A DNA stretch of 64,000 nucleotides from Ferruginibacter sp. (GCA_039919015.1 JBDSGK010000017.1:17380-81379); one strand, 5' to 3'. Positions 27,742-63,848 are shown, counted from the stretch's first letter. Made by a program: numbers and translations. The notes: generated by a model from the letters alone, not told the origin.

Positions 27742-27880
27742 TCGCCTGCGGGCTACGCAAAGAGTGCCGCAGGCTGGTTTTGCAATCACAATAAAATGCC
27801 GTTCCTTTAATAAGCAGCATTGCAGGGCAGACACAGCAACAAATACCCGAGCTGCGGCAAGCCCCGGGCTTCAGCTATAA
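27742..27880 (+). repeat. Degenerate attC-like hairpin
   Basis: Left arm CGCCTGCGG..TGCCGCAG (27765-27772) pairs with CTGCGGCA (27852-27859); ends in GCTATAA (27874-27880), a degenerate core-like site. Confidence 0.45.
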
Positions 27881-41580: not shown

Positions 41581-41609
41581 AATCCCATTTAACGATGGGA
41601 TTTTTTTAT
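41581..41609 (+). terminator. Intrinsic terminator, copy 1 of an identical 29-bp pair
   Basis: AATCCCAT-TTAACG-ATGGGATT-TTTTTAT. Confidence 0.8.
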
Positions 41610-41750
41610 TCCCGCCAAATCACCTCAAATAAATAAGGTGAAAACACGCTATTACACCCTTCGTATACAAATTATGTTTGCATAACTATACCGTAACCGG
41701 CAGTATTACTTAGTAACGCAATTTTAAAACAAACCTTAAACTAAAACATC

Positions 41751-42278
41751 ATGAAAAATTTTGAAATCGGAAGGCTTTTTGAAAATTTACTTAAACGAGT
41801 TGAGATGCTGGAAAACAACTCCGGCGGGGATGGCCGTGAAGAAGAAACTGAAATAACCGAGGATGGCGACATCGTGGAATTTGTACCGGAGAGTATGGAA
41901 AAAATTGAGAACGGGGTTGTTGTCGTCATTGCTGCTTCTGAAGTTCCTCCCAAAATTTTCTTAACAGGAGGTAAAAGAACTGGTAGGGATGAAAGGGGTC
42001 GCTGGGGCCGGTATAGTGGTACTGTTTGGTTACAGGATAATGTAGGAAGAAAACTGAAATGGTTCTATATAGAAACAGGATCGGATAATATATGTAACTT
42101 GAAATATCCGAAATATGCTTCCGGAAGATCAGCACACTACGAAGCAAGAAATACACATATCTGTACTTATGGCTGGAGAGGTATGTGGAGGCCGGGCCAG
42201 GGAGGGGCATCAAGCTGGGGCAGGTTTGTGGATGAGAATGGGAATGGATGGCAGGCAAGGTGGAGTGCCGGTTGCTGA
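41751..42278 (+). CDS. Orphan hypothetical protein (acidic N-half, Gly/Trp/Arg-rich C-half)
   Basis: 175-aa ORF; TATGTTTG -7 box at 41673-41680 and its own terminator. Confidence 0.7.
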   Translation: MKNFEIGRLFENLLKRVEMLENNSGGDGREEETEITEDGDIVEFVPESMEKIENGVVVVIAASEVPPKIFLTGGKRTGRDERGRWGRYSGTVWLQDNVGRKLKWFYIETGSDNICNLKYPKYASGRSAHYEARNTHICTYGWRGMWRPGQGGASSWGRFVDENGNGWQARWSAGC

Positions 42279-42339
42279 TGGCTAAGTTCAGGAAAGAATT
42301 AGAAAACGTACAACAGAATTGATCACCAACGATAAAGTA

Positions 42340-42368
42340 AATCCCATTTAACGATGGGATTTTTTTAT
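42340..42368 (+). terminator. Intrinsic terminator, copy 2 (identical to 41581-41609)
   Basis: AATCCCATTTAACGATGGGATTTTTTTAT. Confidence 0.8.
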
Positions 42369-42421
42369 GTGTTAATATCAGCAAGGATATTTAAGATGTA
42401 TAAAAGGTTTGTATATTTAGT

Positions 42422-43276
42422 GTTATATGCCATTGTAAAAGCACTCTTCAATTTTGAAAATTATTTCAATATCTGATACTCACGGCAAACATAAAGACTT
42501 GATACTTCCTCCGGGAGATACTATAATTCATGCAGGTGATATTAGCATGAAAGGCGAATTATCTGAAATCCTCAATTTCTTTGAATGGTTTACCAGTCTA
42601 AATTATAAATTCAAAATCCTAATCGCTGGCAATCATGACTTCTATTTTGAACGAGAATCAGATCAAACTATCAAAGGTATTATTCCAAATGGCATCATAT
42701 ATCTAAATGATAATGGAATCACGCTTGAACACGTCAAATTTTGGGGTTCACCTATTACTCCATGGTTTTTCAATTGGGCTTTTAATAGACATAGGGGAGA
42801 ACCAATACAAAGACATTGGGACTTAATTCCAAACGATACAGATGTTCTAATTACACATGGTCCAATTTTTCGAACGCTTGATACTACAAAAGATGGTCAA
42901 CATGTTGGTTGCAAAGACCTCTTTAACAAAGTCCATGAAATTAAACCGCAAGCTCATATTTGTGGGCACATTCACGAAGCTTATGGCATGGTAGAGATAT
43001 CCGGAACTAAATTCATCAATGCGAGTGTCGTAAATGAGAAATATAACTTAGTTAACACTCCTATCGTTTTCGAAATCAATTAGTCAGGTCAAACAACGGA
43101 TATAACAGTTAATTGGCGCAATAGCGGTTGGACTTTAAATTTTCAGCATTAACTCATCATTGTCTTTGGTCAGCAGTTGACCGTTAATTAGAAGTTTTTT
43201 CTTAGTTTCATATTCATAAACTAAACCGGCATTGCAACCAGGCGGACGGAATAGTAATACCGCTAATTCGCCAATT
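42422..43276 (+). mobile_element. Integron-cassette-like unit (metallophosphoesterase) with attC-like hairpin
   Basis: 5' GTTATATGCCATT (42422-42434) complements 3' AACGGATATAAC (43095-43106; 1 mismatch, 1 gap). Inverted arms AATTGGCGCAATAGCGG (43111-43127) and CCGCTAATTCGCCAATT (43260-43276), 15/17. Confidence 0.5.
42454..43083 (+). CDS. Metallophosphoesterase (MPPED/239FB-like calcineurin fold)
   Basis: SDTHG, IHAGDI, IAGNHD, LITHGP and ICGHIHE; TTG start; AT-rich. Confidence 0.9.
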   Translation: MKIISISDTHGKHKDLILPPGDTIIHAGDISMKGELSEILNFFEWFTSLNYKFKILIAGNHDFYFERESDQTIKGIIPNGIIYLNDNGITLEHVKFWGSPITPWFFNWAFNRHRGEPIQRHWDLIPNDTDVLITHGPIFRTLDTTKDGQHVGCKDLFNKVHEIKPQAHICGHIHEAYGMVEISGTKFINASVVNEKYNLVNTPIVFEIN

Positions 43277-43308
43277 CATATTTCTAACTAATTTTATTAA
43301 TCAACCCA

Positions 43309-44148
43309 ATGACTAAATATTTAATAATAACAATAGCCTTCTTAATCTTCATTGGTATTCATGATTCAACATGCCAGACCTATAGCAAAGAAACCATACT
43401 CATAACCACCCCTTATGGAAACATGAAGCTGAAACTCTTCAATGAAACCCCACTCCACCGTGATAATTTTATCAGCCTGGTCAAACAGGGTTTCTATGAC
43501 AGCCTGCTTTTTCACCGGGTGATCAACCGTTTTATGATACAGGGAGGAGACCCTGATAGTAAGTCAGCAAACGACACTGTAGCTTTAGGTAATGGTGATG
43601 TTGATTATTGGATCCCTCCTGAATTTAACCGAAAGCTGTATCACAAAAAAGGTATGCTGGCAGCAGCAAGGGAAGGTGATGATATCAATCCGGGTAAAGA
43701 ATCATCCGGCTCTCAGTTTTATATCGTTATGGGGAAAACCTTTGATTCGGCCGCTTTACAAAAAATTGAGCTACGGGTAAATAAGACACTAATACAAAAG
43801 ATCAACTATAATGTTGCTTTCAGTGGTAAAAGTGCAGCACTCAAAAAATATTACACACGACTTTCACTCGAAGAAAAAACGGATAGTTTAAAAATTGTAA
43901 GCCGGCAATTGGTGGATCCCGTCTCCATTGAGCGTTATAAAAAAACACGGCATTTTACTTTTACAGCCGAACAAAAGAAAACCTATGCTACATTAGGAGG
44001 AACCCCGCATTTGGATACGGACTATACGATCTTTGGCGAGATCATTGAGGGACTTGAGGTAATTGATAAAATTGCAGCCATTAAAACGGATAAGAATGAC
44101 AGGCCAAAAGAAAATGTAAGGATGAAAATTTCGATCATTAAAGAATAA
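43309..44148 (+). CDS. Cyclophilin-type peptidylprolyl isomerase (exported)
   Basis: TPLHRDNF, FHRVINRFMIQGGD, SSGSQFYIV, GGTPHLD and YTIFGEI. Confidence 0.92.
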   Translation: MTKYLIITIAFLIFIGIHDSTCQTYSKETILITTPYGNMKLKLFNETPLHRDNFISLVKQGFYDSLLFHRVINRFMIQGGDPDSKSANDTVALGNGDVDYWIPPEFNRKLYHKKGMLAAAREGDDINPGKESSGSQFYIVMGKTFDSAALQKIELRVNKTLIQKINYNVAFSGKSAALKKYYTRLSLEEKTDSLKIVSRQLVDPVSIERYKKTRHFTFTAEQKKTYATLGGTPHLDTDYTIFGEIIEGLEVIDKIAAIKTDKNDRPKENVRMKISIIKE

Positions 44149-44211: not shown

Positions 44212-44466
44212 ATGGTAAATCTTGCTGACATTAATAACCTGTTTACTGAAAGCGATAAAATAAAACATCTTGTGAAATACCTGGAAGATGTTGAAACACG
44301 TTTAAAAAAACAGGAAGAAACGATCAGCTCCCTGACAGCCTCCCAGGAAATCATGAACAACAGGTTAAACAGCCAGCAGGAGCATTTAGGCTCTCATGAC
44401 CTGCACCTCGAATCCCATGACAAGCATTTGCATTCACATGACCAGCGATTGGATATGCGTAAATAG
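44212..44466 (+). CDS. Small coiled-coil protein with His-rich heptad repeats
   Basis: 84 aa; C-terminal HLGSHDL HLESHDK HLHSHDQ RLDMRK. Confidence 0.65.
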   Translation: MVNLADINNLFTESDKIKHLVKYLEDVETRLKKQEETISSLTASQEIMNNRLNSQQEHLGSHDLHLESHDKHLHSHDQRLDMRK

Positions 44467-44588
44467 TGCTTTCCAGTAACCGGCATAATCCATTTGGATA
44501 AGAAGAACAACCGGGTTTTATCTTTATATTTAAGTCAGAACCCTGCGGTTTTTATTCTTCAATTCTAAACCAACCAAAATTTTATATC

Positions 44589-45722
44589 ATGCAGGTAAGA
44601 TATTTTTTAATAGCACTTGCTTTTTGCATAGCCGGCTGTGGCGGTAACAGCACTAAACAAACAACTGCCGGCACTGCTGATACGCTTGCCGATGGAACGG
44701 TCGTTCAGCGTAATACAGAAGAACAACGTAATACAGAAGACCAATCAAATGGTTTTTGGGAAAAATTAGTGATGGTAGAAATTAAAGATCGAAATGGAGC
44801 CATAGCAGCCATCAGGCCCTTCCCTTCCTCCTGGAAGATCGGTAATTCACTCACCACAGGCCCCTATGGCATCAGTATAAAGAGCTTCCCGTTACGGACC
44901 TTTATGGATAATTATAATCCTTCCTTGCAACAGTCATACATACAAAGCGGCCAGCAATTACGCAGTATGCCCGGGGTGGAGCAGTTGATACAGGAAGATT
45001 TTGTGCCATGGGCCCGGGACCAGGGTATGGAGTTGGTGAACTATTTCGAAATTCCTGAAATATCAAAAATGGATAAATGGTACAGTGAAAGTTTATTTGC
45101 CGCCATGCCAGCCCGGTCGGATGTTGCGGCTTTTGGTATCAACTGGAAAAGAAATGATGGCACCCCCTACTTCCAGATATTGCACCTGACTGTAAAAACA
45201 AGCAATACCATGCAAAACTGGTCTTATTATGTTGACGGACTGGAAGCCGATGCAGATCATATGGAAACAGCCAAAAAGCAATTGATCTTTGGCCTTGCCA
45301 ATACCCGTTACAACCTTGAACCCATCATGGCTTTCAACAAAGAAGAAGCGCAACGCTGTAACCAAAGCTGGGCTGCATTCAACCAGCGCATGGCACAGAA
45401 CCAGGCCAACTTTGAAGCACAGCAACGGGCTTTTGTAAACAGAAGTGAAGCTGTAAATGATGCGATCATGAGTGGCTATAGGGCACGCAATGCAGCGAGC
45501 GACAGGAACCAGGAGAATACGATTGACGGCATTTACGAACGCACGAATGTGCAGAATACCGAAACAGGGGAACAGTATAAAGTATCTGCGGGTGCTAACC
45601 AATATTGGATGAATAACAATGGCGAATATATCAGTACCAGGATTAACGACTATAATCCCAATTTAGACCAGAACATGAACGAACAAAAATGGCAGCAGTT
45701 GAAAGAGATCAAAAAGAACTAA
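44589..45722 (+). CDS. Hypothetical lipoprotein
   Basis: Lipobox IAGC; Gln/Asn-rich helical segment; 18-bp tandem duplication at 44709-44744. Confidence 0.75.
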   Translation: MQVRYFLIALAFCIAGCGGNSTKQTTAGTADTLADGTVVQRNTEEQRNTEDQSNGFWEKLVMVEIKDRNGAIAAIRPFPSSWKIGNSLTTGPYGISIKSFPLRTFMDNYNPSLQQSYIQSGQQLRSMPGVEQLIQEDFVPWARDQGMELVNYFEIPEISKMDKWYSESLFAAMPARSDVAAFGINWKRNDGTPYFQILHLTVKTSNTMQNWSYYVDGLEADADHMETAKKQLIFGLANTRYNLEPIMAFNKEEAQRCNQSWAAFNQRMAQNQANFEAQQRAFVNRSEAVNDAIMSGYRARNAASDRNQENTIDGIYERTNVQNTETGEQYKVSAGANQYWMNNNGEYISTRINDYNPNLDQNMNEQKWQQLKEIKKN

Positions 45723-62945: not shown

Positions 62946-63848
62946 ATGATGTGGGAACCTTATAAAAAAGGATTTAAAGCCTGGCTTCAATTGGAAAAAT
63001 CATTAGCGGCTAACTCCGTTGAGGCTTACCTGCGTGATATTGATAAGCTGACAGATTATTTACAGGCCACTAAAAAAATGATCACCCCGCAGGAACTGGA
63101 ACTGAAAGATCTGGAAAAATTCATACAATGGGTTAGCGAACTGGGGATGACGGTTGCTTCTCAGTCGAGGATCATTTCGGGTTTGCGGAGTTTTTATACC
63201 TATTGTATCATTGAACAGATCGTAACCGTAAACCCAACTGCTTTACTGGAAACGCCCAAACAAAAAAGAAGCCTGCCCGATACCCTGAGCTTTGAAGAGA
63301 TCGAAAGCATTATTGCACAGGTTGACCTCAGCAAGCCCGAAGGGGGCCGTAATAAAGCCATCCTTGAAACCCTGTACAGCTGCGGATTACGGGTGAGTGA
63401 ACTGGTAAACCTGCGCATCAGTTGTTTGTTTTTGGATGTAGGCTTTATAAGGGTGATCGGCAAGGGTGATAAAGAAAGATTAGTACCTATTGGCAGTGCA
63501 GCCATTAAATACATCAACCTGTATAAAAATGAGATAAGGGTACACATGAATATAAAGCCGGGGCAGGAAGATTTTCTTTTTTTGAACCGGAGGGGAAGTA
63601 AACTCAGCCGGGTAATGATCTTTATTATGTTGAAGGAACTGGCTGCAAGCGCAGGGATCCTAAAAAACATTTCACCACATACTTTCCGGCATTCATTTGC
63701 TACACACCTGGTTGAGGGCGGTGCCGACCTGAGGGCCGTGCAGGAAATGCTGGGGCATGAAAGCATTACCACCACTGAAATTTATACACATCTTGACAGG
63801 GAATATTTGAGAAATACATTACACCAGTTTCACCCGGCGTTTAAATAA
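62946..63848 (+). CDS. xerD: Site-specific tyrosine recombinase XerD
   Basis: GLRVSEL (R), GKGDKER (K), HTFRHSFATHL (HxxR), LGH and TEIY (Y); no IntI-type insertion. Confidence 0.93.
   Translation: MMWEPYKKGFKAWLQLEKSLAANSVEAYLRDIDKLTDYLQATKKMITPQELELKDLEKFIQWVSELGMTVASQSRIISGLRSFYTYCIIEQIVTVNPTALLETPKQKRSLPDTLSFEEIESIIAQVDLSKPEGGRNKAILETLYSCGLRVSELVNLRISCLFLDVGFIRVIGKGDKERLVPIGSAAIKYINLYKNEIRVHMNIKPGQEDFLFLNRRGSKLSRVMIFIMLKELAASAGILKNISPHTFRHSFATHLVEGGADLRAVQEMLGHESITTTEIYTHLDREYLRNTLHQFHPAFK

Follow-up and report, generated by a model that had tools for sequence, protein, structure and literature searches.

The locus downstream of lpdA

The window analysed here is a stretch of 64,000 nt from Ferruginibacter sp. 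(GCA_039919015.1, JBDSGK010000017.1:17380-81379), and all coordinates are counted from its first letter. The features on which the following account depends all lie on the plus strand:

41581-41609, plus: intrinsic terminator of lpdA, copy 1 (context; from a terminator scan), an exact 29-nt duplicate of 42340-42368
41751-42278, plus: orphan ORF of 175 aa (orf175), between the two terminator copies and outside the cassette
42340-42368, plus: second terminator copy, separated by 37 nt from the landing sequence that follows; stem 42339-42362 followed by a T run
42406-42421, plus: attI-like landing sequence GGTTTGTATATTTAGT, directly left of the crossover GTT
42422-42453, plus: 5' end of the cassette (R' box GTTATATGCCATT and 5' UTR), homologous to the cassette 5' ends of loci L043, L083, L079, and L072
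42454-43083, plus: cargo ORF of the cassette, 209 aa with a TTG start, a calcineurin-like metallophosphoesterase (MPPED2-like, PADLOC family PDC-S10)
43089-43300, plus: folded recombination site of ~205 nt (212 bases by covariance model R1), its R' end decayed
43095-43106, plus: R'' box AACGGATATAAC, 11 nt past the stop codon and ending in the family-invariant AAC
43111-43128, plus: left arm of the terminal stem, pairing with 43259-43276 and lying in the covarying helix of the family
43259-43276, plus: right arm of the terminal stem, pairing with 43111-43128
43277-43295, plus: position of the lost R' box, where CATATTTCTAACTAATTTT replaces CCCTGtACGTTrGCtGcAAT; the model alignment has three gap positions here and lacks the G of the invariant CGTT

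The gene order yihY-thioredoxin-TlpA-lpdA is conserved as far as the stop codon of lpdA; beyond this point the locus differs in every relative examined. The terminator downstream of lpdA is homologous in the relatives G047 and G070. The initial annotation had placed an intrinsic terminator just upstream of the unit, and a stem with a T run is indeed seen there (42339-42368), representing an exact 29-nt copy of the lpdA terminator. The two copies bracket a 759-nt segment that carries orf175 (41581-42368). The bases right after copy 1 resemble those that follow the terminator in G070, and because of this resemblance copy 1 is probably the ancestral one. The duplication around orf175 looks like the result of a single-crossover integration of a circle bearing one terminator copy. 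The orf175 product has no match in Pfam, NCBIfam, or PADLOC and no homolog among 300 genomes of the family.

To the right of the cassette lies the gene for a 279-aa cyclophilin-type PPIase (43309-44148). Of 120 genomes sampled in the genus, only three carry an ortholog, and its neighbourhood differs in each; these loci include L027 and L049, and in G082 the gene lies within an insert of ~7.5 kb whose bordering genes are adjacent to each other in the window's own genome (contig C40). Two more ORFs, orf84 and orf377 (44212-45722), separate the PPIase gene from a WG-repeat gene. They are absent in the closest relative on the PPIase side (G044, locus L038), where the PPIase, WG, and GNAT genes are contiguous, and on this comparison they constitute a further indel of the same variable stretch. 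Because orf175 is an orphan among the 300 family genomes and the PPIase gene lies elsewhere in relatives, the empty site that the initial annotation had proposed to look for is not obtainable in relatives.

The phosphoesterase gene and its product

The ORF at the centre of the unit had been described as an AT-rich metallophosphoesterase gene, a description that holds in both respects: the product matches Pfam Metallophos with an E value of 2e-11 (families PF00149 and PF12850), and the GC content of the ORF is 0.31-0.37 versus 0.42-0.44 in the flanking genes. In the translation, the metallophosphoesterase motifs DxH, GDxxD, GNH[DE], H, and GHxH are all kept, as SDTHG, AGDIS, GNHD, THGP, and GHIHE, respectively. 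The nearest solved structure is that of MPPED2 (PDB 3rl4, E 1e-46), and the PADLOC profile PDC-S10 covers residues 1-208, which is the full length of the protein (E 2.5e-92). The PDC-S10 family is a candidate for phage defence (PMC13573597). Judged by its motifs and profile matches, the protein is an intact MPPED2-like enzyme of this candidate family, for which the hydrolysis of cyclic or linear nucleotides would be the most plausible activity.

The gene is present in 3 of 24 sampled Ferruginibacter genomes, as a single gene with a different context each time, and at the lpdA locus it is absent from every other genome searched. Vertical inheritance at this locus across the family, which the initial annotation had set against its own proposal, is thus not the pattern found. 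The annotation had also asked whether the best homologs lie in unrelated contexts with similar flanks. The unrelated contexts are there, since each homolog within the genus is a single gene in a differing housekeeping context; similar flanks are missing within the genus, where none are shared, and are found instead in the cassettes at L043, on a metagenome contig, and at L083.

In a tree of 85 homologs, the phosphoesterase of the window falls within a supported 13-member clade in which cassette-type copies and PolX-linked chromosomal copies are mixed; its closest relative in this tree is 75% identical. Some homologs occupy a conserved PolX-phosphoesterase context, and about 75 of 80 homologs (species representatives) have no site of the type described below in their vicinity. 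From the mixed clade and the small number of homologs with a nearby site, it appears that the family switches between a resident and a cassette state.

The folded site downstream of the phosphoesterase gene

The long imperfect hairpin reported downstream of the ORF is present, with arms at 43111-43128 and 43259-43276 that pair at 16 of 18 positions and are 130 nt apart. Folding of the bottom strand, which had been suggested as a check, gives a result that is moderately better than shuffled sequences (z -2.4, with 3 of 200 shuffles as good). By BLAST against its own genome the intergenic/hairpin region is unique, and plain sequence similarity misses the site family to which it belongs; likewise, the flank motifs at the two ends of the unit are found at no second cassette-like end in the 64-kb window, where there is neither enrichment nor a second pair. 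Because the motifs do not recur in the window and the hairpin is unique by BLAST, the significance of the hairpin rests only on comparison with a repeat family. Taken by itself, the uniqueness of the flank motifs within the window would agree with a hairpin that is a mere long terminator or a chance palindrome, flanked by chance matches, and so would the fold of the top-strand RNA, which is no better than that of shuffles (z -0.8).

The family comparison removes this reading. Weak DNA hits within the genus to parts of 43084-43308 include one that pointed to G072:C63, which carries seven small ORFs in the same orientation, with a repeat of ~205 nt behind each (sites of 201-207 nt). A first HMM, made from six ~205-nt repeats of this array in another genome, matches the window element with an E value of 1.6e-5 and also detects full-length copies in the window's own genome; a second-round HMM (nhmmer) matches 43112-43275 with an E value of 3.9e-11. 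Covariance model R1, which is built on 14 sites, none of them from the window, and has 222 model positions, matches 43089-43300 over positions 1-222 with 66 bits (E 1e-14, or 7e-13 for the whole genome). By score, this is the ninth of 16 R1 hits in the window's own genome. These full-length HMM and covariance-model matches to a family defined on other genomes, together with the box-level homology between the window and other cassettes, refute the idea of a long terminator or chance palindrome, to which we give practically no credence. The only other R1 hit in the 64-kb window is at unit 1 (27778-27847, 19 bits). The proposal that the present unit is a third cassette and belongs with units 1 and 2 to one system is supported, in that it contains a full-length member of the site family and that its homology to other cassettes starts at GTT.

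Intact family members score 150-207 bits with R1, compared with 66 for the site in the window. The right-hand GTT core at the far end had been noted as lost: no GTT follows the right arm, and the model alignment has a gap there. At this end the R1 alignment sets CAUAU and UUCUAAC, with three gap positions between them, opposite CCcUGuACGUUaGcuG, and the invariant CGTT is missing. Because the far GTT of its own site is lost, the cassette is probably fixed in place, with excision presumably no longer possible. The CTAAC at the lost R' position was also considered as an inverted box left by an inversion; this was rejected, given that an inversion between sites would regenerate a normal site.

A family of 205-nt sites in Ferruginibacter

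Sites of this family are found in 92 of 101 Ferruginibacter genomes and form arrays tens of kb long, as in G063 and G106; no Rfam family matches the ~205-nt repeats. Each cassette site is an imperfect palindrome of 205 nt whose terminal stem is closed by a left-hand AAC and a right-hand GTT, and neither of these triplets ever varies. Within the terminal stem, compensatory changes are seen in 12 of 15 pairs and 92% of the cells are paired; no shuffled or slid control comes close.

The family also holds many scattered single copies. This, and the lack of a repeat near most phosphoesterase homologs, would fit a situation in which the phosphoesterase gene is an ordinary resident and the 205-nt element a MITE- or REP-like repeat that was inserted independently and has no role in gene movement; the clade that mixes cassette-type and PolX-linked copies points the same way. 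However, the orientation of the sites is not independent of the genes, as would be expected for REP or MITE elements: for 24 of 31 sites, a co-oriented ORF ends no more than 80 nt upstream, whereas the mirror arrangement is seen for 2 of 31, a polarity that argues against an element of the MITE/REP type. The sites moreover occur in co-oriented arrays headed by a tyrosine recombinase. The initial annotation had itself named a terminator or REP unlinked to cassette ends as an alternative, and the hairpin family is instead strictly associated with the 3' ends of ORFs in the same orientation and with arrays headed by a recombinase. The presence of the phosphoesterase gene at the lpdA locus in no relative also speaks against a resident gene, as does the homology between independent phosphoesterase copies, which extends over the 5' UTR, the ORF, and the R'' flank and ends at GTT. 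Together, these observations make an independent repeat beside a resident gene very unlikely.

The ends of the cassette

The left and right flank motifs are as described initially: GTTATATGCCATT at 42422-42434, 19 nt ahead of the start codon, and AACGGATATAAC at 43095-43106. The R' motif has 43 occurrences in 8 Mb, corresponding to a chance rate of 4.6e-4 per 85 nt, and 2 of these are at known site ends.

The cassette boundaries are defined by comparison with other phosphoesterase cassettes. A metagenomic phosphoesterase that is 70% identical at the amino acid level (P0006) lies within a cassette array on L043, and the GTT at position 42422 marks precisely where its DNA homology with the window sets in. 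Writing the boundary as a slash, the junction reads CGCAAATACACAC/GTTATAGGCCATTGTAAAAAGACTC in L043 (at greater length, GTTATAGGCCATTGTAAAAAGACTCTACGATTTTGAAA) and TTGTATATTTAGT/GTTATATGCCATTGTAAAAGCACTC in the window (at greater length, GTTATATGCCATTGTAAAAGCACTCTTCAATTTTGAAA); left of the GTT, L043 has the right arm of the preceding site. After the stop codon, the R'' flank AACAACGG(CC)TATAAC is common to both and terminates with the invariant AAC. In the alignment, AACGGATATAAC is matched by AAAACAACGGCCTATAAC in the L043 cassette, and its final AAC corresponds to the AAC column that never varies in the site family. The phosphoesterase of L083 (63% amino acid identity) has the same 5' end, located after a site arm, such that the sequence left of its GTT/ATT again belongs to the preceding site, and L079 and L072 share the 5' UTR of the phosphoesterase cassette with the window. 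Homology between phosphoesterase cassettes thus begins at GTT, matching a G/TT boundary. Given this DNA homology with other cassettes at both flanks, the flank motifs can be taken as genuine boxes, the left one being the GTT-side remnant of R' and the right one the AAC-side R''.

The L072 copy (JAEUSO010000139.1, a Candidatus Kapaibacterium MAG) encodes a 68%-identical phosphoesterase behind the cassette-type 5' UTR GTCATAAGCTATTGTAAAG in the genome of another family, and in the tree it is the sister of the array-borne L043 copy. Because of this UTR in another family and the sister placement to L043, the L072 copy suggests that the cassette may have been transferred across families.

A proposed landing sequence and the position after lpdA

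The sequence that lies directly left of the GTT in the window, GGTTTGTATATTTAGT, has the same motif as the junction GGTTCGTATATTTAAGT/GTTAGC, which is found in G063 110 nt after the stop codon of an array-linked recombinase gene. When aligned with this junction beside the recombinase gene, the left flank in the window agrees at 15 of its 16 positions if a single gap of 1 nt is allowed. Variants of the recombinase-proximal junction are GCGCATATTTATGA/GTTAGC in G059 and CGCCTATTTTTGA/GTTAGC on contig C250 of the window's own genome, and the GTT-ending motif is located 110-430 nt past the recombinase stop codon. On three other contigs of the same genome (C15, C268, and C82), single cassettes are headed by GTATATTTATGA or GTATATTCATGA left of the GTT. 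A strict regular expression for the landing sequence has 11 matches in the genome, and 4 of them (including the window) have a site within 1.5 kb downstream, versus a background of 0.5%. (It should be noted that this enrichment is partly circular, since the short, AT-rich motif had been picked out upstream of known cassettes to begin with; the match to the G063 recombinase junction is independent.) Independent support is limited to a match of the expression at one of five further recombinase loci and to the junctions of G022 and G070 described below. A related pattern, TATTYWYGAGTTRK, has 12 matches in G106 versus 6 for the reversed control, and the counting of landing sites in G106 by this pattern was dropped as too unspecific.

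Junctions of this type are also present at the same position in relatives. After the lpdA terminator, G022 has AAAACTTTCGCCTATTTTTGA/GTT, 21 nt that are identical to the junction after the C250 recombinase, and this junction heads two cassettes, with ORFs of 229 aa and 624 aa, both of which have an intact site. In G070, the junction downstream of lpdA is CATTCGCCTATTTACGA/GTT and heads a cassette of 713 aa. In G047, GCGCCAATACAAAC/GTTGTACGCCATT precedes the first gene after lpdA, and this genome is probably a third relative with such a junction. The cargo at the post-lpdA junction is therefore a 229-aa and a 624-aa gene in G022, a 713-aa gene in G070, and the phosphoesterase gene in the window's genome (G000). 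Since junctions downstream of lpdA head different genes in relatives, the position, as compared across these genomes, is a shared docking junction that is loaded with different cargo in this subclade. Sites detectable by HMM occur downstream of lpdA in just 3 of 26 genomes and are absent there in 23 others of the genus; the docking position is therefore clade-limited, and the notion of a genus-wide hotspot was rejected. A preference of the cassettes for post-terminator positions, which the initial annotation had considered, is better explained by the short attI-like landing sequence, which in this case happens to lie after the lpdA terminator.

Could the likeness of the left flank to recombinase-proximal junctions be due to chance? 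The motif is short and AT-rich, and the related G106 pattern is just twice as frequent as its reversed control; the site of the window is decayed and has lost its right end; and the neighbourhood is rearranged, with the PPIase gene, orf84/orf377, and orf175 all varying among relatives. Against this stand the near-complete agreement with the G063 junction, which ends at the very GTT where the homology between cassettes starts, and the clear junctions that head other cassettes after lpdA in G022 and G070. On balance, we consider a chance likeness improbable.

Directly behind the PolX gene of the window's own genome (C266:2295-2311), there is also a junction of the landing type, AGGATATTTATGA/GTTAGC. 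The post-PolX spot is occupied by a phosphoesterase gene in L031, L032, and L044 and by a 465-aa gene in the window's own genome (C266). In addition, a GC-rich palindrome, CCTGCCTGCCGGCAGGCAGG, recurs in spacers, namely in the post-lpdA regions of G022 (L050) and G070 (L030) and near position 3900 of contig C171 of the window's genome; it probably represents a REPIN-like family.

The array-linked recombinase

A tyrosine recombinase of ~405 aa is encoded upstream of the sites, and co-oriented with them, in G063, G071, G088, G106, G016, G059, and on contig C250 of the window's own genome; in 6 of 7 genomes, arrays lie just downstream of this co-oriented, Xer-like gene. These loci show the layout of the system, which consists of the 405-aa recombinase gene, followed on the same strand by an attI-like junction (...TATTTnnnn/GTT) and then by the cassette arrays. 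The recombinase reaches none of the cut-offs for XerA, XerC, XerD, or IntI. On the IntI model TIGR02249, the C250 protein matches positions 4-179 and 240-315 only, and so is without the IntI-specific insertion at 180-239; the G059 protein reaches 173 bits, in two stretches, versus a cut-off of 265. No protein in the window's genome is above the TIGR02249 cut-off. The recombinase has an additional N-terminal domain of ~115 aa.

The array-type recombinase gene of the window's genome thus lies on a contig other than that of the phosphoesterase cassette. There (C250:448-1679) the coding sequence falls into two ORFs in different frames, one of 116 aa for the N-terminal part and one of 283 aa for the catalytic part; the gene may be a disrupted pseudogene, or the assembly may contain an error here. 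Within the window, a 304-aa Xer-type gene is present ~20 kb downstream of the cassette (62997-63794). Its product is 31% identical to the array-type recombinase, is below all curated cut-offs, and is probably the housekeeping XerC or XerD. In G063 (C4, ~1623.4-1623.5 kb, minus strand; L152), the stretch from the recombinase stop codon to the docking junction contains AAAGGCGACAT as three direct repeats, which recall the integrase-binding direct repeats of attI1.

A model for the phosphoesterase cassette

Taken together, these comparisons argue with good confidence that 42422-43300 is a single mobile cassette, made up of one ORF and one folded site of ~205 nt, which belongs to an integron-like gene-capture system of Ferruginibacter (Chitinophagaceae). 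In the proposed mechanism, the recombinase would join a circular cassette to the junction at G/TT; strand specificity and the exact crossover point are adopted here by analogy with integrons. The phosphoesterase cassette would have docked at a copy of the junction that lacks a recombinase gene and is positioned immediately downstream of the lpdA terminator. Later, the cassette's own site would have lost its GTT end by decay, and excision would thereby have been prevented. Because the site in the window is without its right-hand GTT and scores well below intact members, the insertion is not reconstructable from both junctions.

The phosphoesterase unit exposes two new elements of the system, the attI-like landing sequence and the conserved docking position downstream of lpdA, and suggests that cassettes are parked at several dedicated chromosomal landing sites and not in one array alone. 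A wider reading, which we put forward tentatively and hold to be somewhat short of probable, is that of a distributed integron in Ferruginibacter, in which landing copies of ~20 bp without a recombinase are kept at fixed housekeeping positions and are loaded in trans by one Xer-like recombinase. If this is true, the same landing site holds different cassettes across species, with the phosphoesterase gene here, others in G022 and G070, and probably another in G047. The -7 promoter box of Bacteroidota is TAnnTTTG, and because the landing sequence ...TATTTnnnn/GTT resembles this box, it might also drive the first cassette.

Integrons are the textbook gene-capture device of bacteria and are defined by a special integrase; they are regarded as nearly absent from Bacteroidota. 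The start of cassette homology at GTT and the shared docking junction provide evidence at the level of the boundaries for a parallel system that is run by a plain Xer-like recombinase. This bears on the evolution of integrases from Xer recombinases and on where abundant bacteria of soil and freshwater keep their accessory genes, candidates for phage defence among them.

Comparison with known systems

Integrons consist of IntI, attI, and attC, and include sedentary chromosomal integrons and CALINs (Cury et al. 2016, PMC4889954; IntegronFinder 2.0, PMC9024848). Among the Bacteroidetes, IntegronFinder 2.0 lists only In0 elements, which have an integrase gene without cassettes, and one complete integron, in Salinibacter (PMC9024848). 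We found no description in the literature of cassette arrays in Ferruginibacter or Chitinophagaceae. The Ferruginibacter system resembles integrons in its promoterless single-ORF cassettes, each of which ends in an imperfect palindrome bordered by AAC (left) and GTT (right); in the conservation of site structure while sequence varies, as for attC (a property of the family, with the window's site having R'' and the stem, and R' lost); in its co-oriented arrays of ORF plus site, which lie beside a tyrosine recombinase and begin with a short docking site that is not a palindrome; and in the G/TT boundary of the cassettes.

The differences concern the recombinase and the length of the sites. The Ferruginibacter recombinase is Xer-like, falls below the IntI cut-offs without the insertion that marks the IntI clade, and carries the extra N-terminal domain of ~115 aa. 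It is also co-oriented with the array, whereas in classical integrons intI is divergent from it. Typical attC sites are about 57-141 nt long, and the Ferruginibacter sites, at ~205 nt, are beyond this usual length and have conserved internal motifs (GGAC and TTCATCATCA).

SALINs are single attC sites without an integron integrase, and their cassettes are inserted at attG, which is unlike attI (Loot et al., bioRxiv 10.1101/2022.09.11.507474). As in SALINs, the phosphoesterase unit is an isolated one-site cassette far from an integrase or array and is read as a chromosomal insertion outside the main platform. Its target, however, is not an unrelated attG; instead, it resembles the docking junction next to the recombinase. 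In addition, the same position carries other cassettes in relatives, and the families of both the recombinase and the sites are different.

The pdif modules of Acinetobacter plasmids are similar in that gene modules are moved by Xer-type recombinases. These modules depend on XerC/XerD and are flanked, in inverted orientation, by 28-bp dif-like double-stranded sites. Ferruginibacter, in contrast, has one palindromic site of 205 nt per ORF, in direct orientation, and assembles its cassettes in long arrays.
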